Of a stretch of 64,000 nucleotides of DNA, positions 5,250 to 55,673 are shown one piece after another (within the stretch, counting starts at the first letter, position 1; every line of letters begins with the position of its first letter). The translations under genes were made by a program, and so were the position numbers. Source of the stretch: an uncultured Gammaproteobacteria bacterium (lineage in GTDB: Bacteria > Pseudomonadota > Gammaproteobacteria > DSM-16500); assembly GCA_965653045.1 (NCBI GenBank), contig CBFGYM010000002.1, forward strand, positions 2,192-66,191, written 5' to 3'. The notes under the pieces are model-generated. The model was given only the letters and a program-made list of their open reading frames with translations, had not been told where the DNA came from and did no database searches.

Positions 5250-5255
5250 GTTCGC

Positions 5256-5490
5256 ATTGTCTTCAGGGCAGGGTGAAATTCCCTACCGGCGGTAGTTTTA
5301 GCCAAGGTTTCTTGACTAAATGAGCCCGCGAGCGCTCCCCACGGGGAGGTCAGCAGATCTGGTCACAGGCAAGTTGGTGCCTCGCAATACAAAGGCTGCT
5401 ACATATTTGACCAAATATGGTCAAAATATCAGCAAATCAACCGCCTTACATTCCAGAGCCGACGGTCAGAGTCCGGATGAAAGAAGATAA
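5256..5490 (+). promoter_or_regulatory. FMN riboswitch (RFN element)
   Basis: Conserved RFN blocks appear in order: CTTCAGGGCAGGGTGAAATTCCCTACCGGCGGT, AGCCCGCGAGCG, GGTCAGCAGATCTGGT, ATTCCAGAGCCGACGGT, AGTCCGGATGAAAGAAG. P1 pairs tcttc with gaaga. Located directly 5' of ribD. Confidence 0.9.
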
Positions 5491-5579
5491 ATATCAATTG
5501 CTTACCTAACACAGGCTAGGTCTGTGTTCACGTGTGCATTGTTTGCCCTGTTTTGTCTATTTTTAGAACAAGGTCAACA

Positions 5580-18183: not shown

Positions 18184-18996
18184 ATGAACATGGCAAATTC
18201 ACCCTTAAAGTTGACCGGCGTTGCACTCACTGAGGCGAATATCAGTCACTTTTTGAAACAAAAACCTGCCGTGGCCTGGGTTGAAGTAAATACTGAACAT
18301 CATCTCGTTGAAGGCGGCCGCATTAAACATCAATTACATCAACTTCGAGAACACTATCCGGTGAGTTTACACGGGTTGGGTTTATCACTCGCGTCACAAG
18401 ATGAATTAAATTGGTCGTATCTTTCTAAACTCCGTCAATTATGCCAACAGATTGATGCGTGTTTGGTGTCTGATCATTTAGCGTGGTCGTCATTGAATGG
18501 ACATTATTTTCATCAGACTTTGCCGTTTCCTTATACCGAAGAAATGCTTGTCGCCCTAATTGCACGTGTTGAGCGAGCGCAAGAAATGTTAGGTCGGCAA
18601 ATTTTAATTGAAAATTGCGTGCAGCACGTGCATTTTTCACAGAACACCTTGACCGAAGCTGAATTTTTAAATGAACTCGCGAAAGCCACACACTGTGGTA
18701 TTTTGTTAGACTTAAGCGCCGTGTATGTGAGTGTTGAACACACCGGTTTAACAATTATTGATTATTTAAAAACGTTATCAGGTCACTTCATTCAAGAAAT
18801 TCATTTGGGCGCTGTGAATAAGCACGAGACAATTTCACCGGCGCTATGGGATATGTATGCGGAAGTGATTAAACACGTCGGTCGCAAGCCCACTATCATT
18901 GAATCTGAATTGTCACTTGAAGATATCACCGCTGATGCACAACACGCAGAATTGCGCATGAGAGAAACCTATGTTGCCACAAAATTGGCAGGATGA
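18184..18996 (+). CDS. DUF692/UPF0276 family protein (MNIO-type putative peptide-modifying oxidase)
   Basis: 270 aa. The WVEVNTEHHL...YPVSLHGLGLSLAS...LVSDHLAW pattern is typical of DUF692. Confidence 0.75.
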   Translation: MNMANSPLKLTGVALTEANISHFLKQKPAVAWVEVNTEHHLVEGGRIKHQLHQLREHYPVSLHGLGLSLASQDELNWSYLSKLRQLCQQIDACLVSDHLAWSSLNGHYFHQTLPFPYTEEMLVALIARVERAQEMLGRQILIENCVQHVHFSQNTLTEAEFLNELAKATHCGILLDLSAVYVSVEHTGLTIIDYLKTLSGHFIQEIHLGAVNKHETISPALWDMYAEVIKHVGRKPTIIESELSLEDITADAQHAELRMRETYVATKLAG

Positions 18997-19693
18997 TTTT
19001 GCTGAATCGTTGAATAGTGATCACCCGTTTGCGGAGGGTGCATCGCCGCTGGCAAATTTGCAAATTTATCATCGTGATTATCAAATAAAATTAATTGAGG
19101 CTTTGAAAAAAACGTTTGCGCTGACTTATGCAGAATTAGGCGAGGAACAATTTACCATCGTTGCGAAATCGTATATCACGCAATATCCCCCTTCTCAGCC
19201 TTTGTTGCATGCGTATGGTGAATATTTTTCAACGTTATTGCGTGAAGAAGAAAGCACGCAACACATGAGTTATTTATCTGAGTTGGCTGATTATGAATGG
19301 TCGTTTCATTTAAGTGATTTAGCGCCGGCTGCAGACTGTTTAACATTGTCGGCCTTAGATATTATTCATCAAGAAAACCCCCAAACAATTTTTTTAAGTT
19401 TGCACCCAACAGTAAAGTTATTAGAATATCGCTCTCCCATTCTAAGCATTATTTCTTCGGCGGAATTTGCTCCCTCCGCTGAACATACCTATTGCCTCTT
19501 ACACCGCCCGGCAAATGATGTTTGTGTCATCCCACTCACCTTAGCCGATTACACATTCCTCTCCATCCTCGCCGACAACCAACCCCTCAGCACCGCCCTC
19601 GCAACCTCGCCCGTTGGCCCAAAACTGCCGTATTTTATCGAGTTAGGCCTGTTTTGCGAGTTAGATTGCACTCGTTTTCAAACGAAACTCTGA
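18971..19693 (+). CDS. DUF2063-type partner protein of DUF692
   Basis: 240 aa, overlapping the DUF692 gene by 26 nt. The N-terminal region (LQIYHRDYQIKLIEALKKTF) resembles the DUF2063 family that normally follows DUF692. Confidence 0.6.
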   Translation: MLPQNWQDDFAESLNSDHPFAEGASPLANLQIYHRDYQIKLIEALKKTFALTYAELGEEQFTIVAKSYITQYPPSQPLLHAYGEYFSTLLREEESTQHMSYLSELADYEWSFHLSDLAPAADCLTLSALDIIHQENPQTIFLSLHPTVKLLEYRSPILSIISSAEFAPSAEHTYCLLHRPANDVCVIPLTLADYTFLSILADNQPLSTALATSPVGPKLPYFIELGLFCELDCTRFQTKL

Positions 19694-46641: not shown

Positions 46642-47499
46642 ATGCTTAACGAAATCATTGACGAGCTGCGTTCACTGCGAAAAATCTTAAAAAAAGATTT
46701 CCTCGCCCCATTAACGTCTGATCAACGTGCCGCTTTATTTTCTGCTTTCAAAGAAATTTTCAAAACCGAAGAAGACGTTTTACATTTCCAAGGGAAAATT
46801 TTAAATAAAATTAAAAGAAACCTGCGCGATGAAAATAACCCTTATTTTTCCGAACAATTGTCTCCTTCACCACAATCTGCTTTAAGTTTTATTTTAAGTA
46901 TGAATTTTTCAGTGTTGAAGGCAAACGAAGCTGAAGCACAAGCCTTTTTAAAAGGGTTTGATAATGCTGAAATTAAATCCACTCCGAATATGACAAAACT
47001 CACGGTCAAAGAACGTTATTGGAAATTTTGTCAGCGACATCCCTTTTTAATTGCAGCGAGCATTGCGGCTATTTCAACGACCTTGTTATTAGGTGCATTT
47101 GTTTTAATGAGTGCCCTACCCCTGTTACTGCCGCCTTTTTTAAGCCTCACTGCCGGCATCTTTTTTAGCTTAGGGCTAAGCATTGCGGGCAACCTAGTTT
47201 TCACCGGCTTAGTGGGTGCTATTATTCGAAAAGTCAGCAATGTTGTGCTATTCAAAATGTCGAGCCAAGCTGAAAAACGGGGCGAGATGACAATCACTTC
47301 AAGCTTAAAAACGATGGTCGATGCCCTTGAACAACGCGCTATTCAAAAAAGCCCGAAAGATCAACGAGATAAAGCTTATTTAACCAAACCAGACCGTGAG
47401 GCTTTCACGCACTTAATTATCAAATTCACCACGTTTAAATATCGCATTCCGGAAACCACCGCATTAATTCAATCAAAATTTTATACCCTGCGATACTAA
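46642..47499 (+). CDS. hypothetical membrane-hairpin protein (paralog 1 of a pair)
   Basis: 285 aa. ERYWKFCQRHPFLIAASIA is followed by a hydrophobic stretch of about 65 aa. Shares three blocks with the next ORF. Confidence 0.6.
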   Translation: MLNEIIDELRSLRKILKKDFLAPLTSDQRAALFSAFKEIFKTEEDVLHFQGKILNKIKRNLRDENNPYFSEQLSPSPQSALSFILSMNFSVLKANEAEAQAFLKGFDNAEIKSTPNMTKLTVKERYWKFCQRHPFLIAASIAAISTTLLLGAFVLMSALPLLLPPFLSLTAGIFFSLGLSIAGNLVFTGLVGAIIRKVSNVVLFKMSSQAEKRGEMTITSSLKTMVDALEQRAIQKSPKDQRDKAYLTKPDREAFTHLIIKFTTFKYRIPETTALIQSKFYTLRY

Positions 47500-47630
47500 A
47501 ATTGCCTATTTTTGAATAAGTTACTAACCCATCACCCACCCCTCAACCCTGCTATTTTTGATAGACACAACCTGTTTATCGCTGTACAATGTGGAAAAAT
47601 ATTGCACAAAATAACATCGAGGGGATTGTA

Positions 47631-49037
47631 ATGCCGAGTGAATCTTCTAGTTTACTTGACTACATTGATAGTATTATTAAAATAGAAAACACGCCTGAAC
47701 TCAAATATTTAACATCGAGTTTAGAGACTTATTTAATCGTTGATTCTATTGAAAATAAATTAGAAGCACTGAATCGCATTTACAAGAAATTAAAAAGGTC
47801 GCATTCAGAAGAGCAGAATCCTGTTCTTGTTGCTTTATTCTCAATCATTTTATCGAATGCCTTTCCTAACAAAAAAACCATTTCAGAAACTGACATTGAT
47901 GCAGTCAATAAGCTTTTTCGTCGTTGTTTACAGCATGGTTTCATTACGTTTTTCATCACGTTATTTGAAAATGAAACGGTTAATGACAGCGTTTTTTCAG
48001 ATCAATTACTCAATGATATTTTTGAAACGACAGGTGCGAGTCTTGGTAATAGAAAAATTAACCCAATGATTAAACATCGTAAACAATGTTACGATGCAAA
48101 TATCTATGTTCAAGATTTATTAACTCATCAATTATATTTAAGTGATCCGACAGTCACAGAAAAAGAATATATTCTTAATTATTTAAAAAATCATTTTAAA
48201 ACAGAGAAAGCACTTCGTGATTTTCAGTCTAGTCTTTTGAAACAAATTCATGAAAATCGCGCTGAAAACCAATATTATTCTAATGAAAGAAAGCCATATA
48301 AGACAGCACTTGGTTTTATCTTGCGAGTGACCTTTCCTTTATTGCAATGTAACAATTCATCCATCATTAATAGTTTTTTAGAAAAGCCGTATCGAAAACT
48401 GCCTTCTCATCAAAGTGAACTGCCGCTGCCTGTTAAACAACCAAATCGTTTTTGGTCGTTTTGTCAACGCCATCCTTATCTCGTTTCATTCGGAATTGCG
48501 CTTGGCGTGCTTGGTTTAGCTATTGGTGGATTAGCTACTTTTGGTGTTTTACATTTTCTGCTCGCAACCCCGATTATTGCTGCTGCGTTTTTTGTGCTGT
48601 CGCAAGCAACTTTAACCGGTGCTATATCACTGTTCTTAAAACCAATTAGCAGACATTTTTCTAAAACGCCTATCGTAATTCCGCAGGACAACAGAGCAAA
48701 TGAACCTAATTTAAGTTTTAATCTCTCAGCGTCTACAACGGCTATGTTACAACCTTTATTGTCTGAAACTGTAGAATTCAAAGAATGTGAAGCGTCTGAT
48801 TCCAGTGATGATCATTTAGATCAAGAAACTGAATTGTCTCTAAACAGCGTTGCATCTTCGTTACCACGTCGTAAATATTGGGTAGACGTCACTAAACCTG
48901 CGGTTATTGAATCTTCGGATGATCGTACCAATATCGCAAGACTAATTGCACGATTTACGATTAAACCCCGTACCCGAAAAACCACAAGCGTTCCAGTGAC
49001 TGAATCTACGCCACTCTTATTAAATAAAAGCTTTTAA
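47631..49037 (+). CDS. hypothetical membrane-hairpin protein (paralog 2, N-terminally extended)
   Basis: NRFWSFCQRHPYLVSFGIALG plus a hydrophobic hairpin. Blocks FKTEKALRDFQSSLLKQI and ARLIARFTIKPRTRKTT match paralog 1. Start taken at the ATG at 47631 behind GAGGGG; the track start is 47589. Confidence 0.6.
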   Translation: MPSESSSLLDYIDSIIKIENTPELKYLTSSLETYLIVDSIENKLEALNRIYKKLKRSHSEEQNPVLVALFSIILSNAFPNKKTISETDIDAVNKLFRRCLQHGFITFFITLFENETVNDSVFSDQLLNDIFETTGASLGNRKINPMIKHRKQCYDANIYVQDLLTHQLYLSDPTVTEKEYILNYLKNHFKTEKALRDFQSSLLKQIHENRAENQYYSNERKPYKTALGFILRVTFPLLQCNNSSIINSFLEKPYRKLPSHQSELPLPVKQPNRFWSFCQRHPYLVSFGIALGVLGLAIGGLATFGVLHFLLATPIIAAAFFVLSQATLTGAISLFLKPISRHFSKTPIVIPQDNRANEPNLSFNLSASTTAMLQPLLSETVEFKECEASDSSDDHLDQETELSLNSVASSLPRRKYWVDVTKPAVIESSDDRTNIARLIARFTIKPRTRKTTSVPVTESTPLLLNKSF

Positions 49038-49049
49038 AATTTTAAAAAG

Positions 49050-50468
49050 CTACCCCTTCACCAACGCATGATCCGGGTCGAATGATTTCAGCTTCCGCCA
49101 GGCGCTTTGTTGTTTTTCATCCAACTGAGCCACAAACTCTTCCAACGTCACCACCGTAATGCCTTCTAGTTCCCGCAAGGCAAAACGTCTTAACAAGGCT
49201 CGAATTTGCGGCGACCCCACCACCGATTCTTTGGTATATTTATTCGACTGCAAACGCAAAATAGTACTAATGGCTGGTTCTGCAAACGCAGTAAAGGCCT
49301 TCATGAACTTGGTTTTCGTGCGTTTTGGCAATGCTTCAATCACCTGCTCTATCGCCTCTTCCCGATACGCCTGATATTGATCTTGAATATTCTCGGCCAT
49401 CTTGCGAATTTCGCTCATTTCAATTTCCGCTCTCGCGTCTTGAATGGAGATAATATCTGCCGATTTAGTCTTGGGTGGCTGGAAATCTTGCTTAATGGCA
49501 CTGATTAAATACGCCGCCTTATTTTTCACCCTGCCCGACTTGAACCCCCGCGAACTTTCTACCATCTCAATTTTCTTTTGAATGTAGTCAGCCTCGTGCT
49601 TACTCATCAAATCATCCGCCTGCTTCTCACTGAGCTCAAATTTTGCGATTAACACGGTTTTAAGATTGGTGAGTGTATTGAGTGCCTCGGCTGTCACGCG
49701 TTGCCTGTTGCCCAAGCGTGTGCGTTTGGCGCGCTCTTTCAGCATAAAGCGCACACGCACCACCTTGCGCCCTTCTTTCCCGTACTCGGGCTCTATAATT
49801 AAATCAGAGTACATATTGACTTCTTCAATCGCTTTGTCTAACACACGGCGCTTGAAGTCACGAAAAATATCGTAGTTACCTGGCAACACACCCATTAATT
49901 TTTTGAACAAGTCCATTTCAAACCATTTGGTCTGTGGCAAACCCCGATACCGAATGCAGTTTTCATATAAGGCTAACCCGTAGCTCGACCGAAACCGAGA
50001 CTGAATGACTAAATCGATCTTGCCGAACATCGACGGTGAATGCAGCAATTGCTTCATACGCGGCGAATACGCGAAATAACACAAAGGGCCTTCCAAACTC
50101 ACACTTGCTAAAATAGAACTGGCTGTCCAATTCTCCGTGCCAGTTTTATCATCAATTAAATTCCATTCAATGATGGTTGAAATTAACCCACGCAAAGCTT
50201 CTTTAATCACGGCGTGATTATTGCCTTGATAGCCAATTAAACGACAAAGCTGCTTCACTGTTATTTCATGCTCTTCTTTTACCATCATTTCATGATAGGC
50301 ATGATACAGCAGCGCATTACTTACTTTGCGTTGTAATAAACTGAGTGTATTTGAACAGTGTATGGTTGCTGCGTGTTTTTTTAATTCACGTTTTTCCGAT
50401 ACAACTATTTCTCCCACATCCGTCACTTGTTGTCCCATTGTTGTCACATTCGCTCCCATAAATGTCAC
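49050..50468 (-). CDS. repA: plasmid-type replication initiator (Rep_3/RepB-like), start uncertain
   Basis: Winged-helix initiator-like N-terminal half (LSLLQRKVSNALLYHAY...ITVKQLCRLIGY...). Lies next to phased direct repeats and a divergent parAB. The first 19 or so codons of the track ORF are simply the iterons read in frame (VTTMG, VTDVG). Confidence 0.7.
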   Translation of the reverse strand: MTFMGANVTTMGQQVTDVGEIVVSEKRELKKHAATIHCSNTLSLLQRKVSNALLYHAYHEMMVKEEHEITVKQLCRLIGYQGNNHAVIKEALRGLISTIIEWNLIDDKTGTENWTASSILASVSLEGPLCYFAYSPRMKQLLHSPSMFGKIDLVIQSRFRSSYGLALYENCIRYRGLPQTKWFEMDLFKKLMGVLPGNYDIFRDFKRRVLDKAIEEVNMYSDLIIEPEYGKEGRKVVRVRFMLKERAKRTRLGNRQRVTAEALNTLTNLKTVLIAKFELSEKQADDLMSKHEADYIQKKIEMVESSRGFKSGRVKNKAAYLISAIKQDFQPPKTKSADIISIQDARAEIEMSEIRKMAENIQDQYQAYREEAIEQVIEALPKRTKTKFMKAFTAFAEPAISTILRLQSNKYTKESVVGSPQIRALLRRFALRELEGITVVTLEEFVAQLDEKQQSAWRKLKSFDPDHALVKG

Positions 50469-50516
50469 ACATTATCCCATAGACGTCACGAACTTTACCA
50501 TAAACGTCACATTTCA
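50412..50516 (+). repeat. five direct repeats with exact 21-bp phasing (putative iterons / oriV)
   Basis: TCCCAT-N4-GTCAC cores at 50412, 50433, 50454, 50475 and 50496 (tcccacatccgtcac, tcccattgttgtcac, tcccataaatgtcac, tcccatagacgtcac, taccataaacgtcac). An AT-rich stretch follows to 50689. Confidence 0.8.
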
Positions 50517-50689
50517 AGCGATTTATTTCTTCATTATCAATTGGTTACAACACTGTAAACAAAAGATAAACGAAAGATAAACAAAAACACAACGGCATAG
50601 CGTTGTTATTTTTATAATTTTATCTGTTTCGTGTAGCTTAACAAGTGATATAGTAAACATTATCGTAATACAACGACAGGAGTCCATTT

Positions 50690-51559
50690 ATGGAAGTCAT
50701 CGCTTTTGTTAACAATAAAGGAGGGGTTGGTAAAACAACCTGTAGTAAATTAATGGCAGAGTATTTAAGTAAACGCAAAAAAATGCGTACGCTTTGCATT
50801 GATTTCGATCCGCAATGTAATTTTTCTCATCAATATCTTGATATGGAAATTGACCCTGCAGCCCCTGAAGGGTTAATGCCACCCATTCATCCTGATTTTG
50901 ACCCTTTAAATCCGGAAGATAATGAATGGGACGGCCGTAGCAGTATTGCTGAAATTTTTTATGGTCAAGGTGTGGTTCCTTACCCAACTTATGTTGATAA
51001 ATTGGACATAGCGCCTGGACATGCAGAAAAATTACTCACCGCTGAATCAGTTCGACGTTCTGAAGTCGTCGATAAAGTTCATAAACAACTCGCACAATTT
51101 TTAAATTCACCGGATGTGAATGCTGCGTATGATGCCGTTGTGATTGATACGGCACCCTCAAAAGGGCCTTTAACTATTAGTGTGATTAAAGCAGCAACGC
51201 ATATTGTGATTCCATCAGTGATGGAAGAACAACCCGTTCAAGGGATTTATGGGATGTTGCAATTGTGGATGCAAGAATCACTCATGCGTGATAAGTCTAA
51301 GCCATTGAATTTAGTGGGAATTTTACCTAATATGTTCAAACAAACACGCTTACACAAAGATATTCTAAAAAGTCTGCAAGATAATCAAGCCATTGGTAAA
51401 TATGTATTGCCTGTGAAATTTTCACAGCGCATTGTCTTTGCTGAAGTCGATGCGGCGGATTCTGCACCGCGTTCAATTTTTGATTTTCCGGAACAACAAG
51501 TTGCAAAAGCAGAAGCGGAAGAAGTTTGTAGCCACATTGCTGAGAGGATCTTCGCATGA
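50690..51559 (+). CDS. parA: ParA-family partition ATPase
   Basis: 289 aa with the deviant Walker A motif NNKGGVGKTT. Transcribed divergently from the rep gene. Confidence 0.9.
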   Translation: MEVIAFVNNKGGVGKTTCSKLMAEYLSKRKKMRTLCIDFDPQCNFSHQYLDMEIDPAAPEGLMPPIHPDFDPLNPEDNEWDGRSSIAEIFYGQGVVPYPTYVDKLDIAPGHAEKLLTAESVRRSEVVDKVHKQLAQFLNSPDVNAAYDAVVIDTAPSKGPLTISVIKAATHIVIPSVMEEQPVQGIYGMLQLWMQESLMRDKSKPLNLVGILPNMFKQTRLHKDILKSLQDNQAIGKYVLPVKFSQRIVFAEVDAADSAPRSIFDFPEQQVAKAEAEEVCSHIAERIFA

Positions 51560-52575
51560 CACGTAAAAAACGATTTGGTATTTCAGAAGCGCTTACACGC
51601 GGTTTAAGTGAAACAATACACGTCGTCGAAAACAATACAGGACGATATCGTAATGTGGTGATGCCCTTATCACGTATTGAGCTAGACCCTGATAACCCAC
51701 GAAAATTACTATTGACCTTAAATGATGTGCGCAATGGCATTTCACCCAATGATGCTGAACACACCAAAAAGCAGCAAGAACTTGAGAGCTTGCAAGAACT
51801 GGCACATACCATCAAAACTAGCGGTGTGATCAACCCCGTCGTCGTTTATAAATTAGGTGAAACTTACCGTGTTGTGGCAGGTGAAAGAAGATGCCTTGCT
51901 TCTATTCTAGCTGGGAAGCAAGAAGTCGATGCACGTGTATTTACTGAAAAGCCCAAAGGCTTTGATTTGAAGCTGATTCAATGGATAGAAAACACAGCAC
52001 GTGAAGATTTAACCTTGGATGAGCGCCTAGGGAATGTACGCGATATTTTAAACGAATATCAACTGCAACACGGTGATGCTGATGTGACAGGCACTTTAAT
52101 TAAAAACATCACGGGTTTGTCTTTGTCTCAATCAAGCTATTACTTGGCGGCAATTACAGCACCAGAAGATGTGCGTGCCGCCATCAAAGCGGGTTCAGTC
52201 AAAAACCTTGATAAGGCTGCGCTGATTGCCGGGGTTACCGAAAAGACATTAAGACACGATATGTTAGTTGCCTGCGAGAATGGTTCTAGCTTAAAAGAAT
52301 TGAAGTTAATGTTGACCAAAACAAAGCAAACGCAAAAGCTAACCGTGGTACAACCAGCGAAAGTGACACGTGGGCGTGTCGCGAAAAAGGTGAACATGGG
52401 TTCAACAACGCAACCGAAAGTGATTAAGACATTGGTGAGTTGTGTGCTTTCGCATAAAAGCTATGATAAATTCACAACCTTATTTACAAATGTACGTTGG
52501 GATGATTTTGGTCAGTCGACGAAAGCGTTTAGAAAACTCGTTCAACTTTTGGAATCGGAAACGGCGGGATCATGA
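51556..52575 (+). CDS. parB: ParB-family partition protein
   Basis: 339 aa with the ParB-box motif VVAGERRCLASILAG. ATGA overlap with parA. Confidence 0.85.
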   Translation: MTRKKRFGISEALTRGLSETIHVVENNTGRYRNVVMPLSRIELDPDNPRKLLLTLNDVRNGISPNDAEHTKKQQELESLQELAHTIKTSGVINPVVVYKLGETYRVVAGERRCLASILAGKQEVDARVFTEKPKGFDLKLIQWIENTAREDLTLDERLGNVRDILNEYQLQHGDADVTGTLIKNITGLSLSQSSYYLAAITAPEDVRAAIKAGSVKNLDKAALIAGVTEKTLRHDMLVACENGSSLKELKLMLTKTKQTQKLTVVQPAKVTRGRVAKKVNMGSTTQPKVIKTLVSCVLSHKSYDKFTTLFTNVRWDDFGQSTKAFRKLVQLLESETAGS

Positions 52576-52934
52576 TGCAAAACAAATGTGTGACTTCAAT
52601 TAAATTGCAAAAAAATCTTCATCGACAATTGCAACGACGGATTATTGAAGACGGCTATGGGATGCGTGGTAAAAGTAAATGGATTATTGAAGCTGTTCAG
52701 TCGTTGTTAAAGATTGATGATTTTCCAACCCTGGTGGATATTGCTGAAGATATGGATCATTTAAGCGATATCGTGAGTATTCGCTTGCCTGAAGACTTAA
52801 TGGTGAAAATCGAGCAAGCTGCTATTCATGTACGTAAGCAATATCCGTTAATTGAGGGGGTTAAAAGTAATTTAATCCGTGCGAGTATCATTCAGCGCTT
52901 ACTTCGAGAGACAGCTTCGGTCACCGAAGTTTAG
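52572..52934 (+). CDS. small protein with two ribbon-helix-helix-like units
   Basis: 120 aa, with an ATGA-type overlap onto parB. Two beta-alpha-alpha units: TSIKLQKNLHRQLQRRIIE...WIIEAVQSLL and VSIRLPEDLMVKIEQAAIHV...NLIRASIIQRLL. Confidence 0.5.
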   Translation: MMQNKCVTSIKLQKNLHRQLQRRIIEDGYGMRGKSKWIIEAVQSLLKIDDFPTLVDIAEDMDHLSDIVSIRLPEDLMVKIEQAAIHVRKQYPLIEGVKSNLIRASIIQRLLRETASVTEV

Positions 52935-52989
52935 TGTAAGTCGTTGTATTTTAACAAGTTAATTAAATATTAAATAGCTGCTAAAACCC

Positions 52990-53028
52990 TCCCATAAGTG
53001 TCACATATCAAATGTGACGTTTATGGGA
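52990..53028. repeat. inverted pair of iteron-like sites followed by a T-run
   Basis: tcccataagtgtcac (52990-53004), a 9-nt spacer, then gtgacgtttatggga (53014-53028), which is the complement of tcccataaacgtcac. Followed by ggtttctttttt. Confidence 0.8.
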
Positions 53029-53092
53029 GGTTTCTTTTTTGGCGGGTGTAAAAATGTTCTATGTGGAACTTTTTTGACGGGGCGTGTGGTTG

Positions 53093-53212
53093 TCGTTCAT
53101 CCTTCGAGACGGCCTGCGGCCTCCTCAGGACGAACGGGATAGATATGCGGTTTCACCGTTCGTCCTGAGGAGCGCGTTTTCTGCGCGTCTCGAAGGACTC
53201 GAAGGGTGGACG
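53093..53212. repeat. two REP-like elements in inverted orientation
   Basis: gtcgttcatccttcgagacggcctgcggcctcctcaggacgaacggg (53093-53146) and ccgttcgtcctgaggagcgcgttttctgcgcgtctcgaaggactcgaagggtggacgg (53156-53212). Same family as at 22.8-26.3 kb. Confidence 0.85.
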
Positions 53213-53229
53213 GGATAAAACCACCCTAT

Positions 53230-53293: not shown

Positions 53294-54226
53294 ATGGAAG
53301 AGCGTAATGTCTTATCACCGGAAGAAGTCGAAGCCATTTTACAGGCTGCTCAAAAGAGTGGTGAGGTTGCTAATGAAGAAGCAGCCGCAGCGCCTGTGGC
53401 CGATGAAAACGGCAGCCTTATTAATACACACGCTCTCAATGTTATCTTTGATACCTTCTGTACCGAACTCGAAAACAAATTTACTGTTTTATTACGCAAA
53501 AAAGTCACAGTTAAATCTAACCCCTTCGCCGTTGCTAAAGTGTCTGAATGTTTAAAGCAAGCGTCTGAGCGCGATGTTTACTCTGCCTTTAAAATGCACC
53601 CTAGCGAATGCTATAGCATTATCTCTGTAGAATACCCTTTCTTAGATCAGTCAATTAACTTGCTCTACGGCGGCAAGATGCAAGAAAAAATTGGCGAAGA
53701 AAACTGGTGCGGAAAAATTGGGATTATTACCGGTGAAAAAATCAGCCGTGTGATTTTGGGTTGCCTTGCTGATGCCAGTAAAGAATACGGTAAAGTGGAA
53801 TACGAACACTATAAAACAAATCGTATAATCTCTAACGTCAATAATATGCAAGAAGAAGACGAAGTGTATTTTGCAACCTTTAGCCTTGTTTTTGAAGAGT
53901 TTGAGGCGAAATTTACAATTCACGTGAATAAACTTTTATTTGAAACCCTCATTCCGAATAGCGTTGGTAAAAATCAGCATCAGGATAAAGATTTTTGGCG
54001 CAGTGCGATTAAAGCAGAAATGATGGATTCTTACGTCACTGTCAGCATGAATTTAAACGATGTTAATGTAAAAGTGAAAGAATTTATGGAATTGAAAGAG
54101 GGAGATGTTATCCCTATTTCAAATCCAACGCTTGTTTACGTTTGTTTGAATCATTTAAAGCTATATCGTGCGGTGGCAGGGCAATCTAACGGGAATATGG
54201 TGGTGAAAGTCGTCAGTCAAATTTAA
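53294..54226 (+). CDS. fliM: flagellar motor switch protein FliM
   Basis: 310 aa. The N-terminal LSPEEVEAIL resembles the CheY-P binding motif (LSQxEIDALL). Middle and C-terminal SpoA-like domains; followed by fliN. Confidence 0.8.
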   Translation: MEERNVLSPEEVEAILQAAQKSGEVANEEAAAAPVADENGSLINTHALNVIFDTFCTELENKFTVLLRKKVTVKSNPFAVAKVSECLKQASERDVYSAFKMHPSECYSIISVEYPFLDQSINLLYGGKMQEKIGEENWCGKIGIITGEKISRVILGCLADASKEYGKVEYEHYKTNRIISNVNNMQEEDEVYFATFSLVFEEFEAKFTIHVNKLLFETLIPNSVGKNQHQDKDFWRSAIKAEMMDSYVTVSMNLNDVNVKVKEFMELKEGDVIPISNPTLVYVCLNHLKLYRAVAGQSNGNMVVKVVSQI

Positions 54227-54237
54227 TGGGGTGAGGC

Positions 54238-54585
54238 ATGGAAGAAAACCAGCAAAATACACCGAGTTCAACACCTGAGGCAAGCACAAGCCAAACCGTG
54301 GGCGCAACCCTAGAACAAGCTTTGTTCAAAGGTAAAGGCATGGATTTTTTAAATGACGTGCCAATCACCTTAACCATTGAGGTTGGTAGAACACAAATTA
54401 AAATTCGTGATTTATTAAATTTATCGAAAGATTCTATCGTCGATTTAAACAAAGGCGCTGGAGAACCCGTTGATATTTTTGCAAACGGAAAATTAATTTC
54501 AAAAGGGAATATCATCACAGCCAATGGAAAATACTGTGTTCGATTAACTTCAATTGCACAACCTGTCATTGAAAAATCGGAATAG
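54238..54585 (+). CDS. fliN: flagellar motor switch protein FliN
   Basis: 115 aa with SpoA domain LTIEVGRTQIKIRDLLNLSKDSIVDLNKGAGEPVDIFANGKLISKG. Confidence 0.85.
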   Translation: MEENQQNTPSSTPEASTSQTVGATLEQALFKGKGMDFLNDVPITLTIEVGRTQIKIRDLLNLSKDSIVDLNKGAGEPVDIFANGKLISKGNIITANGKYCVRLTSIAQPVIEKSE

Positions 54586-54593
54586 GGAGCTTT

Positions 54594-54908
54594 ATGATTG
54601 CGCAAGTGGTCTTAAATTTATTGCTCGTCCTTAGTTTGGCCTTTGCCTGTTATTGGGCGGCCAAAAAAATGCGTTATCGAACCGTACTGGGCGCAGCGGC
54701 AAATATTAAAATTTTGAGCATGTTATCATTGGGTACCAAAGAAAAAGTCGTATTGTTGGAAGTTGAGGGCGAAAGAGTGCTCGTGGGTGTCACACCACAG
54801 CAAATGACGACTTTATTTCATATCAGCGAGCGTACTTCAGAGTCGAAATTGCACAATTTCAATGAAATATTTCAAAAAAAATTCAGTGAAACAAGTGAGC
54901 AAGCATGA
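54594..54908 (+). CDS. fliO: flagellar biosynthesis protein FliO
   Basis: 104 aa with a single N-terminal TM helix and the KVVLLEVEGERVLVGVTPQQMTTL core, in the fliN-fliP position. Confidence 0.75.
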   Translation: MIAQVVLNLLLVLSLAFACYWAAKKMRYRTVLGAAANIKILSMLSLGTKEKVVLLEVEGERVLVGVTPQQMTTLFHISERTSESKLHNFNEIFQKKFSETSEQA

Positions 54909-55657
54909 TTAAGCGAGTACGTTACTGGCAATGGGGCTTGGGCTTCGCACTTCTCATGGTGTGTGGTGTTGCTTGTGCCGGCATTAGTGATGTGCCTTTA
55001 ATTGTTGCCAAGCAAACTAACAATGTCACCAGCTACAGCTTAAGCATTAAAATTATCGCGTTAATGACATTATTAACGGTCATGCCTGCCTTATTAATAA
55101 CAACCACCGCATTTACTCGCATCATTATTGTGCTTGCCATTTTAAGACAAGCCATTGGCATTCCTAACGTACCGACAAACCAAATTCTCATTGGGTTAGC
55201 GTTGATTATGACCTTATTTGTAATGCGGCCCGTGATTGATCATGTAAATGAAGTGAGTGTGCAGCCGTATATGGCTGGGAAAATCACTGAAGAAGCCGCA
55301 ATCACCGCCGCAATGGTTGATTTAAAAGCTTTTATGATGAAGCAAACACATAAAAGTGACTTAAATTTATTTTATAAATTATCGAAAACACCGGTTGCAA
55401 CCAATGGAGACCACCCATTTTTAGTGGTTCTGCCAGCCTACATTACCAGTGAATTGAAAACCTCATTTGAAATTGGATTTTTAATTTTTATTCCTTTTTT
55501 AATTATCGATTTAGTGGTTGCCAGTATTTTAATGTCTATCGGGATGATGATGTTATCACCGATGATTATTTCATTACCGTTTAAAATTCTATTCTTTGTT
55601 TTGGTCGATGGTTGGAGTCTCATTGCAGCGAGTTTGGTGACCAGTTTCCGTGTTTAA
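54905..55657 (+). CDS. fliP: flagellar export gate protein FliP
   Basis: 250 aa with a signal-like N-terminus and conserved FliP blocks (FTRIIIVLAILRQAIG, GFLIFIPFLIIDLVVASILMSIGMMMLSP). Confidence 0.9.
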   Translation: MIKRVRYWQWGLGFALLMVCGVACAGISDVPLIVAKQTNNVTSYSLSIKIIALMTLLTVMPALLITTTAFTRIIIVLAILRQAIGIPNVPTNQILIGLALIMTLFVMRPVIDHVNEVSVQPYMAGKITEEAAITAAMVDLKAFMMKQTHKSDLNLFYKLSKTPVATNGDHPFLVVLPAYITSELKTSFEIGFLIFIPFLIIDLVVASILMSIGMMMLSPMIISLPFKILFFVLVDGWSLIAASLVTSFRV

Positions 55658-55673
55658 CGGATGATGGAGCGCT

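Follow-up and report, generated by a model that had tools for sequence, protein, structure and literature searches.

The stretch of DNA analysed here, referred to as the window, comprises 64,000 nucleotides from an uncultured gammaproteobacterium (assembly GCA_965653045.1, contig CBFGYM010000002.1, positions 2,192 to 66,191), and the subject of this report is a replication and partition module of about 4 kb that lies within it. A first-pass annotation, made from the letters of the sequence and a list of open reading frames (ORFs), had described this module as a canonical iteron origin with a partition cassette placed among genes that are normally chromosomal, and this description was borne out. 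The module consists of a gene for a replication initiator of the Rep_3 family, an array of iterons that overlaps this gene, an AT-rich spacer and, divergent from rep, an operon of parA, parB and a third gene, here called orf3. The operon is followed by an outlying cluster of iterons and by a candidate centromere. Their positions in the window are given in Table 1, together with that of a palindrome lying beside the 3′ end of rep.

Table 1. Positions and descriptions of the features of the module and of the adjoining AT-rich palindrome
Feature	Position	Strand	Description
AT-rich palindrome	49029-49049		GCTTTTAAAATTTTAAAAAGC, between the convergent stop codons of a 482-aa ORF and rep
rep	49050-50447	-	Rep_3-family initiator with WH1 and WH2 and a C-terminal extension of about 220 aa
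Iteron array	50411-50515	none	five direct repeats, nTCCCAYnnnnGTCAC, in exact 21-bp phase, overlapping the 5′ end of rep
AT-rich spacer	50516-50689	none	presumed DNA-unwinding element; holds the parA promoter and ribosome-binding region
parA	50690-51559	+	small Walker-type partition ATPase, 289 aa
parB	51556-52575	+	putative centromere-binding protein of the ParB/Spo0J family
orf3	52572-52934	+	120 aa, predicted single-chain tandem ribbon-helix-helix (RHH) DNA-binding protein
Outlying iteron cluster	52988-53030	none	two full iteron motifs, inverted
Candidate centromere	53055-53071	none	parS-like palindrome ATGTTCTATGTGGAACT, single copy

Organization of the module

The initiator gene proposed in the first-pass annotation was confirmed, as its reading frame was intact and both domains of the family were recovered above their Pfam cut-offs in the ORF 49050-50468 on the minus strand (Rep3_N with E 1.9e-15 and 57.9 bits against a cut-off of 22.4, Rep3_C with E 1.3e-14 and 54.6 bits against a cut-off of 21.1). 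A weak homology to the NCBIfam family RepE was also detected (E 9.4e-06). Gene callers placed the start of rep at 50447, which gives a protein of 465 aa; the start codon is, however, ambiguous between 50417 and 50468, because the ORF runs through the iterons. In a plasmid collection, the best matches to Rep were the plasmid initiators of Legionella, Aquicella and Coxiella QpH1 with 40-46% identity; the best match in PLSDB was 46% identical, and the large Aquicella replicons were not among the matches obtained there. Searching a large protein collection yielded more than 120 Rep clusters of about 465 aa with 62-95% identity, including those of Aquicella lusitana and Aquicella siphonis (AQUSIP_26380). 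The protein is much longer than classical Rep_3 initiators. No Pfam family was found above threshold for its residues from about 250 to 472 (window 49050-49720; about 220 aa), and this C-terminal part is partly common to the Rep proteins of Legionella and Aquicella plasmids, with alignments extending to residues 394-414.

The five iterons that had been noted 5′ of rep were present in exact 21-bp phase. Six exact matches to CCCAYNNNNGTCAC were found in the 64-kb window and none lies outside the module: the array has four of them and the outlying pair the other two. The fifth iteron of the array shows one mismatch to this sequence. When up to one mismatch was allowed, 15 matches were counted, compared with 3.4 +/- 1.7 in shuffled sequences, and none of 100 shuffles reached 15. 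In 10 related lineages, the cultured species A. siphonis and A. lusitana among them, iteron arrays of three to five copies at 21- or 22-bp spacing occupy this position as well. The unit of 21 bp corresponds to seven codons, and the rep ORF translates the array as heptads.

The spacer between the iterons and parA has a GC content of 29.3%, compared with 42.0% for the window, and its lowest 100-bp segment lies within the lowest 0.7% of all segments of this length. The AT-rich stretch of the first-pass annotation was thereby recovered, but the direct repeat counted there as two copies turned out to be three tandem 11-mers at 50556-50588 (TAAACAAAAGA, TAAACGAAAGA and TAAACAAAAAC). Two of these were obtained by repeat detection, and the third was read off the sequence in agreement with the consensus of an alignment of eight species. 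Nearly invariant blocks in this alignment of the rep-parA spacer were the ribosome-binding and leader region of parA, the motif GTTGTG, the three 11-mers (TTTTGTTTAnn) and the block GTAAC..TTGAT, after which the iterons follow at 21- or 22-bp phase into rep. GATC sites were not found in the origin. A promoter scan returned sites that were no more numerous than in shuffled sequences, and no promoters were assigned; an Rfam scan revealed no replication-control RNA, its sole match being a flavin mononucleotide (FMN) riboswitch elsewhere in the window. The sequence TTAACAAGT was considered as a shared operator and was rejected, since it is not conserved in the sister strain L008.

The claim of a divergent, translationally coupled parA-parB operon was upheld by the gene junctions and by the domain matches of both products. 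ParA was matched by the Pfam families AAA_31 (E 3.7e-22) and CbiA (E 7.2e-16) and, with a score under that family's cut-off, by ParA_partition of NCBIfam (E 9e-22). ParB was matched by Pfam ParB_N (E 7e-12) and by TIGR00180 of NCBIfam (64.3 bits against a cut-off of 58.45). Both the parA-parB and the parB-orf3 junctions are ATGA overlaps, and in all relatives with a locus reaching far enough past parB, orf3 occupied third place in the operon.

For the product of orf3, neither a Pfam family at cut-off nor an NCBIfam match was obtained. Its C-terminal half showed a match to Pfam RHH_1 (E 0.08, 13.3 bits against a cut-off of 20.5) and its N-terminal half, in a profile search against PDB, a match to the RHH domain of NikR (E 0.27), both being sub-threshold. 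The two halves aligned with one another by hhalign with 28% identity (E 0.013), which is suggestive only. A single-sequence AlphaFold2 prediction was unusable (pLDDT 39), and a model based on an alignment of 50 homologues was used instead (pLDDT 81.2, pTM 0.75). Its predicted topology, E5-12/H14-26/H31-46, a linker and E66-73/H74-90/H97-111, consists of two beta-alpha-alpha units. The best Foldseek matches of this model were chains of the F-plasmid relaxosome with 104-118 residues (probability 0.91-0.99, TM 0.56-0.66, over 102-114 columns). The F-plasmid relaxosome complex includes TraY, a single-chain RHH pseudo-dimer, which may be among the matched chains. A TraY-like tandem RHH fold is supported for orf3 by the predicted structure; the tandem-RHH gene claimed earlier was thus retained at the level of structure prediction and not at that of sequence, where the RHH matches stayed below threshold.

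The inverted iteron pair of the first-pass annotation was also found, and the end coordinate 53028 that had been given for it cuts off 2 bp. This pair additionally scores as a terminator-like hairpin that closes the par operon, with a 19-bp stem followed by a T-run. An outlying cluster of one to three iteron motifs was observed just past orf3 in L001, L003, L005, L006, L012, L019 and L020, these seven being the relatives with loci long enough to reach past orf3. The motifs are inverted in most of these relatives and direct in L006, and three copies are present in L003. Because the copies of L006 are direct, the conserved feature at this site is the iteron sequence rather than the hairpin.

A palindrome of the TGTTCYAYRTRGAACA type, which resembles the chromosomal parS TGTTNCACGTGAAACA, was found 20-40 bp past the outlying iterons in L001 (as a perfect 16-mer), L005, L006, L008, L019 and L020, and about 140 bp past them in L003. 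Canonical parS, with up to four mismatches allowed, gave no match at a conserved position in the window, and the variant palindrome emerged through comparison with the relatives. The window copy, which was absent from the list of the first-pass annotation, is the candidate centromere of the module.

GC skew, related replicons and gene content

The first-pass annotation had suggested that the module might serve as the replicon's own main origin, and had named the cumulative GC skew near 50.5 kb as a check, the lack of an inflection there counting against an active origin. Over 73.9 kb, i.e. the window and a 10-kb rightward extension, the cumulative G-C curve fell steadily as far as 50,593, its minimum, which lies in the AT-rich spacer, and rose from there on; this inflection favours an active origin and supports that suggestion. 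To separate replication from transcription, the top-strand GC skew was taken at third codon positions. To the left of 50.5 kb it was -0.102 for genes on the plus strand (26 genes) and -0.111 for genes on the minus strand (18 genes), and to the right it was +0.088 (10 genes) and +0.163 (4 genes), respectively; in the 10-kb right extension the values were still positive (+0.08 and +0.17). The sign of the skew follows the side and not the orientation of the genes, and the switch is therefore tied to replication and not to transcription. In 8 of 10 related loci (L001, L003, L004, L005, L006, L012, L019 and L020), the cumulative minimum likewise lies about 50-400 bp from the rep-parA spacer. The exceptions are L002, where the minimum is further off, and L011, which is almost without a left arm. 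This skew pattern is not what an inert remnant would produce.

Rep orthologues with 62-66% identity are encoded on records of second replicons from A. siphonis (LR699120.1; 421,424 bp) and A. lusitana (LR699115.1; 281,037 bp). Both records come from PacBio assemblies reported as one unitig per replicon and are separate from the chromosomes. The replicons of the two species are listed as LR699114-118 and LR699119-120 (bioRxiv 10.1101/852004), their chromosomes comprise 2,154,315 bp in A. lusitana and 2,411,764 bp in A. siphonis (PMC10272867, supplement), and Aquicella has been included among the genera with multipartite genomes (PMC10272867). The ParA, ParB, RpoN, RibBA and FliP proteins of the window share the same longest contig, which is 401,058 bp long, and none of six proteins looked up was carried by a contig of more than 1 Mb. 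Related metagenome-assembled genomes (MAGs) are labelled 'uncultured Coxiellaceae' or 'Gammaproteobacteria'. Most likely, the window comes from a replicon of about 0.4 Mb that corresponds to the second replicons of Aquicella and belongs to a clade member not yet cultured. A megaplasmid or chromid was one of the options left by the first-pass annotation, and it gained support from the separate Aquicella replicon records, from the length of this contig and from the skew minimum.

On the rep side of the module, the order of genes for an rlmI-like methyltransferase, isovaleryl-CoA dehydrogenase (IVD), the beta subunit of methylcrotonyl-CoA carboxylase (MccB, the MCC carboxyltransferase), enoyl-CoA hydratase (ECH), 3-hydroxy-3-methylglutaryl (HMG)-CoA lyase, a permease, electron-transfer flavoprotein (ETF) ubiquinone oxidoreductase (ETF-QO) and a thiolase was the same in eight other lineages. 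This synteny extends over at least 15 kb in lineages spanning 37.5% to 47.7% GC. The par-side flank is variable between species and contains group II introns, transposases and toxin-antitoxin genes. Identities to the relatives were 63-66% for Rep, 63-64% for ParB, 75-80% for orf3 and 87-91% for ParA, and among the neighbours 58-59% for RlmI, 72-78% for IVD, 71-74% for MccB and 45-51% for ECH. Judged by these identities, the replication genes have diverged in step with their neighbours, as would be expected under long vertical co-inheritance.

ParA was 87-91% identical to its counterparts in L005, L006 and L012, while Rep and ParB showed about 64% and RlmI about 59% identity, which points to an unusually strong constraint on ParA. 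Plasmid-like cargo was observed on the par-side flanks of L019 (1985-3601) and L020 (1-1113 and 2645-3493), namely a protein with a CBUA0006_C domain, which is named after a Coxiella plasmid ORF, reverse-transcriptase (RVT_1) genes, hipBA-like toxin-antitoxin genes and a second ParB-like gene. Two adjacent ORFs without a family match separate the rlmI-like gene from rep in the window (46642-47499 and 47589-49037, both on the plus strand); a similar motif (..W.FCQRHP..) occurs in both and precedes long hydrophobic stretches. Across species, this slot holds none to two genes of differing length, and it may encode lineage-specific membrane or effector proteins.

Among the further genes of the window, lysA and rpoN encode proteins scoring above NCBIfam equivalog cut-offs (LysA with 494.8 bits against 297.9, RpoN with 400.2 bits against 277.35). 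The FMN riboswitch (RF00050) at 5255-5492 on the plus strand scored 94.2 bits against a gathering score of 66.2, and because it lies directly upstream of ribD, the riboflavin operon (ribD-E-BA-H) retains normal regulation on the replicon. Genes for tdk, cyoAB, an rlmI-like protein, ETF, ETF-QO and leucine catabolism are also present. In a search for RibBA homologues, no named or close Aquicella orthologue was found among the best 120 matches. No tRNA, rRNA or ribosomal-protein gene was found in the 64-kb window, and no DnaA or DnaN domain was on record for the genes called in it. With regard to features of a chromosomal oriC, no DnaA-box cluster was found, and the module is therefore not oriC.

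A flagellar cluster adjoins the module in the lineage of the window only, and the A. lusitana replicon is without flagellar genes at this place. The set, which is apparently large and lies at 53294-63880 of the window and 1-10000 of L017, comprises a fliM-like gene, fliN, fliO, fliP, motBA, flgA, flgI, flgJ, flagellin, fliD, fliS and flgBCDE. The fliM-like product is divergent, scoring 94.6 bits where the cut-off is 219.6. In the usual order of flagellar genes fliQ and fliR would be expected after fliP; in the window, that place is taken by genes for a full sigma-54 and an HD-domain protein and by an ORF of 803 aa without a family match. At 21708-25223 (plus strand) and 26308-27693 (minus strand), three tandem genes with small-GTPase domains of the Ras/Roc/Arf type were found beside an ankyrin-repeat gene; such proteins are eukaryote-like and typical of the secreted effectors of Legionellales, and here they are encoded on a second replicon. 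A gene pair with MbnB_TglH_ChrH and HvfC_N domains (18184-19693, plus strand) lies beside lysA and an acyl-CoA dehydrogenase gene.

Nature of the replicon and alternative explanations

With its layout oriV-rep-parABS, the module is probably the origin, in active use, and the partition cassette of a chromid-like secondary replicon of about 0.4 Mb, a megaplasmid of an uncultured bacterium in the Aquicella clade (Coxiellaceae, Legionellales). Harrison and colleagues are said to have characterized chromids in 2010 by plasmid-type replication and partition, a composition within about 1% of that of the chromosome, core genes and conservation within a clade. Replication and partition of the present replicon are of plasmid type, and its origin architecture and rep-side synteny recur in eight other lineages. 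The GC content in samples of 11-14 kb from the relatives was 47.7% for the replicon and 48.1% for the chromosome of A. siphonis, and 44.9% and 44.7%, respectively, for those of A. lusitana.

Several observations weigh against this interpretation. No gene seen on the replicon is universally essential. The DnaA box TTATCCACA, with up to one mismatch allowed, had no match in 50380-50700 and was not enriched across the window; DnaA boxes are common, though not universal, in the origins of iteron plasmids. In one relative the module lies 147 kb inside a contig of 749,608 bp, which indicates that the size and perhaps the status of the replicon vary by lineage. Finally, only one of five AlphaFold2 models of orf3 was confident, and the E-values of its Foldseek matches were only about 0.1.

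One alternative, that the window belongs to an ordinary dispensable megaplasmid, would leave the module an active origin and make the rib operon, lysA, rpoN and the flagellar genes accessory or unneeded. It is in keeping with the title 'plasmid 4' of the record of another small A. lusitana replicon, with the variable par-side flank and its group II introns, transposases and toxin-antitoxin genes, with the restriction of the adjoining flagellar cluster to the lineage of the window, with the lack of a close Aquicella RibBA orthologue among the best 120 matches and with 64 kb lacking tRNA, rRNA and ribosomal-protein genes. It is nevertheless unlikely, given the rep-side synteny of at least 15 kb shared with eight other lineages of 37.5%-47.7% GC, the parallel divergence of the replicon proteins and their neighbours, a GC content of the Aquicella replicons within 0.4 points of the chromosome in the sampled stretches, the scores of LysA and RpoN above equivalog cut-offs and a rib operon with its FMN riboswitch. 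Far less probable is a replicon that has fused with the main chromosome, or that is itself the main chromosome, the module being active beside oriC or replacing it. The five window proteins that share the maximum contig of 401,058 bp, with none on a contig of more than 1 Mb, argue against such a fusion, and so do the closeness of this length to the 421,424-bp replicon of A. siphonis, the lack of a DnaA-box cluster and the sharp V of the skew centred on the module, which a recently silenced or minor origin would not give. In its favour, the module of one relative lies well inside a 749,608-bp contig, and chromid-chromosome fusions occur in other multipartite bacteria.

The first-pass annotation had further considered that a small plasmid had integrated into the chromosome, with repetitive extragenic palindromic (REP)-like elements marking its right edge and the AT-rich palindrome its left edge. 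In this case a recent integration of a small iteron plasmid would have left an inert remnant between these two elements. The module is indeed compact (4 kb) and self-contained, and chromosomally integrated plasmid sequences are known from Coxiella burnetii strains (PMC10098735). However, neither edge was sustained. At 53081-53215, the REP-like sequence amounts to an insertion of 121 bp that the sister strain L008 lacks, although this strain otherwise aligned through the region. Further units, each of about 50 nt, lie at 22800-22849 and, in eight or more copies, within 25238-26269, which gives at least nine further copies in the window, most of them in one intergenic cluster. The repeat family is GC-rich and hairpin-forming, and a 127-nt copy folds at -71 kcal/mol. 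The REP-like sequence is therefore a repeat that is mobile and dispersed rather than a junction, and the AT-rich palindrome has the appearance of a usual spacer or terminator separating two convergent genes. No tRNA was found in the window, none of the genes called up to 10 kb from the module has a recorded integrase or recombinase domain, and the GC content of the module (0.40-0.41) hardly departs from the 0.42 of the window as a whole. All genes of the module are intact with the skew minimum placed on it, and the same neighbours were found in eight other lineages, including those with a Rep of just 63-66% identity; no relative examined lacked the module with these neighbours. An integrated remnant is accordingly the most improbable of these explanations and can hardly be maintained.

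For an active origin of a chromid-like replicon, a mechanism can be proposed from homology with Rep_3 plasmids and from the anatomy of the module. Rep monomers would bind the five phased iterons and open the neighbouring AT-rich region with the 11-mers. Replication would proceed bidirectionally from the spacer, since a leading-strand skew is seen on both arms, and bound Rep would repress rep, because the iterons overlap the 5′ end of this gene. The outlying iterons, 2.5 kb off, would probably limit initiation by titration of Rep or by 'handcuffing'; extra iterons restrain initiation in plasmid P1 at incA and in plasmid F at incC. The outlying inverted pair may also act as a terminator of the par operon. 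ParB, bound at the parS-like palindrome, would segregate the copies together with the small ParA. ParA has 289 aa here, compared with about 406 aa annotated for the ParA of QpH1, and longer plasmid ParA proteins possess an N-terminal DNA-binding domain for regulation of their own operon. The predicted tandem-RHH protein would most likely be a regulator of the par operon or an accessory factor at the centromere.

Sequence comparison further suggests that the replicon is old and vertically inherited, and that it shares common ancestry with the plasmid lineage of Coxiella QpH1 and the Legionella plasmids. A wider reading, for and against which the chances seem evenly divided, is that the Aquicella clade, with well over 100 metagenome lineages, shares an ancient, vertically inherited chromid of 0.27-0.75 Mb that descends from one plasmid lineage together with QpH1 and has a fixed origin architecture, i.e. 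five iterons, 11-mer repeats, a divergent operon of parAB and the tandem-RHH gene, outlying iterons and parS. In some lineages lysA, riboflavin synthesis and an entire flagellar regulon, complete with a sigma-54 of its own, would be encoded on this chromid. Legionellales are usually treated as having a single chromosome and accessory, dispensable plasmids. If the wider reading is true, multipartite genomes would be ancestral in part of the order, and a natural series from plasmid (QpH1) to chromid would exist in it.

A second replicon that is clade-wide and long inherited, with genes for motility, cofactors and amino acids, also alters the assembly, binning and completeness checks of MAGs in this clade, as contigs with rep and parAB may be dropped as 'plasmid', with the loss of flagellar, rib and lysA genes. 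The replicons from QpH1 to Aquicella would offer a comparative system for a plasmid becoming a chromid, and the 4-kb cassette might be made into the backbone of stable low-copy vectors for Aquicella and related amoeba pathogens, following the example of the QpH1 origin in Coxiella. Secondary replicons with iterons and ParABS are a well-known kind of element. For the origin of the Aquicella second replicons, their chromid status and their clade-wide conservation, no description was found in the literature that could be searched, and neither was a paper combining Coxiellaceae and chromid.

Comparison with known systems

The layout of the module resembles that of plasmids P1 (oriR/incC-repA-incA-parABS) and F (oriS/incB-repE-incC-sopABC), in which a WH1-WH2 initiator is combined with phased iterons next to AT-rich DNA, with iterons that overlap the promoter region of rep, with a second, separate iteron cluster and with type I partition genes close by. 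The initiator, the arrangement of iterons and AT-rich region, the separate iteron cluster and the type I partition are found alike in the window. Unlike P1 and F, the origin of the window contains neither a DnaA box nor GATC, and the second iteron cluster of its clade has just two or three copies and lies beyond the par operon. Its ParA is of the small, chromosomal or Ib size, an extra tandem-RHH gene is present, and the replicon, on which metabolic and flagellar genes are also encoded, is ten times the size of those plasmids. With TraY of the F plasmid, orf3 shares the predicted fold of two beta-alpha-alpha modules in one chain, whereas sequence identity is 13-15%; TraY is an accessory protein of the relaxosome at oriT, while orf3 belongs to a partition operon with no relaxase nearby.

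Among gammaproteobacterial chromids, the Pseudoalteromonas chromid and Vibrio chromosome 2 are likewise large, stable secondary replicons with plasmid-type replication and partition, normally chromosomal genes and a chromosome-like composition. The initiator of Vibrio chromosome 2 is RctB, whereas that of the window is of the Rep_3 family; the host order also differs, and the present replicon is much smaller (0.27-0.75 Mb in the clade).

Within the same bacterial family, the plasmid QpH1 of C. burnetii, from which the shuttle vector pQGK derives its origin, is also a low-copy replicon with ParA and ParB. The segment CBUA0036-0039a of QpH1 contains an AT-rich region as well as four 'atypical' iterons of 21 bp, and it is sufficient for maintenance in C. 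burnetii (bioRxiv 10.1101/2020.03.22.001875). The Rep_3 initiator of QpH1 is 45-46% identical to that of the window over two thirds of its length. Its iterons CCTGCAAAYGTCKC are arranged at a 21-bp phase with a core related to the CCCAYnnnnGTCAC of the window, and both systems have an AT-rich region, with two extra inverted iteron copies lying beyond rep in QpH1. However, parA, the parB-like gene and rep of QpH1 are co-directional with the iterons upstream of parA, whereas rep and par of the window diverge around the origin. No tandem-RHH third gene is annotated in QpH1, and iteron specificity differs, the motif of the window being without a match in the QpH1 locus.

The closest resemblance was seen to the second replicons of Aquicella. 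In A. lusitana (LR699115.1; 281 kb) Rep is 66%, ParA 91%, ParB 64% and orf3 80% identical to the proteins of the window, and in A. siphonis (LR699120.1; 421 kb) Rep is 64% and the orf3 homologue 78% identical. Both replicons have the same iteron motif and array and the same rlmI and leucine-catabolism neighbours, and the outlying pair is also present in A. lusitana. They belong to different species, probably to different genera, with GC contents of 45% and 48% compared with 42% in the window.

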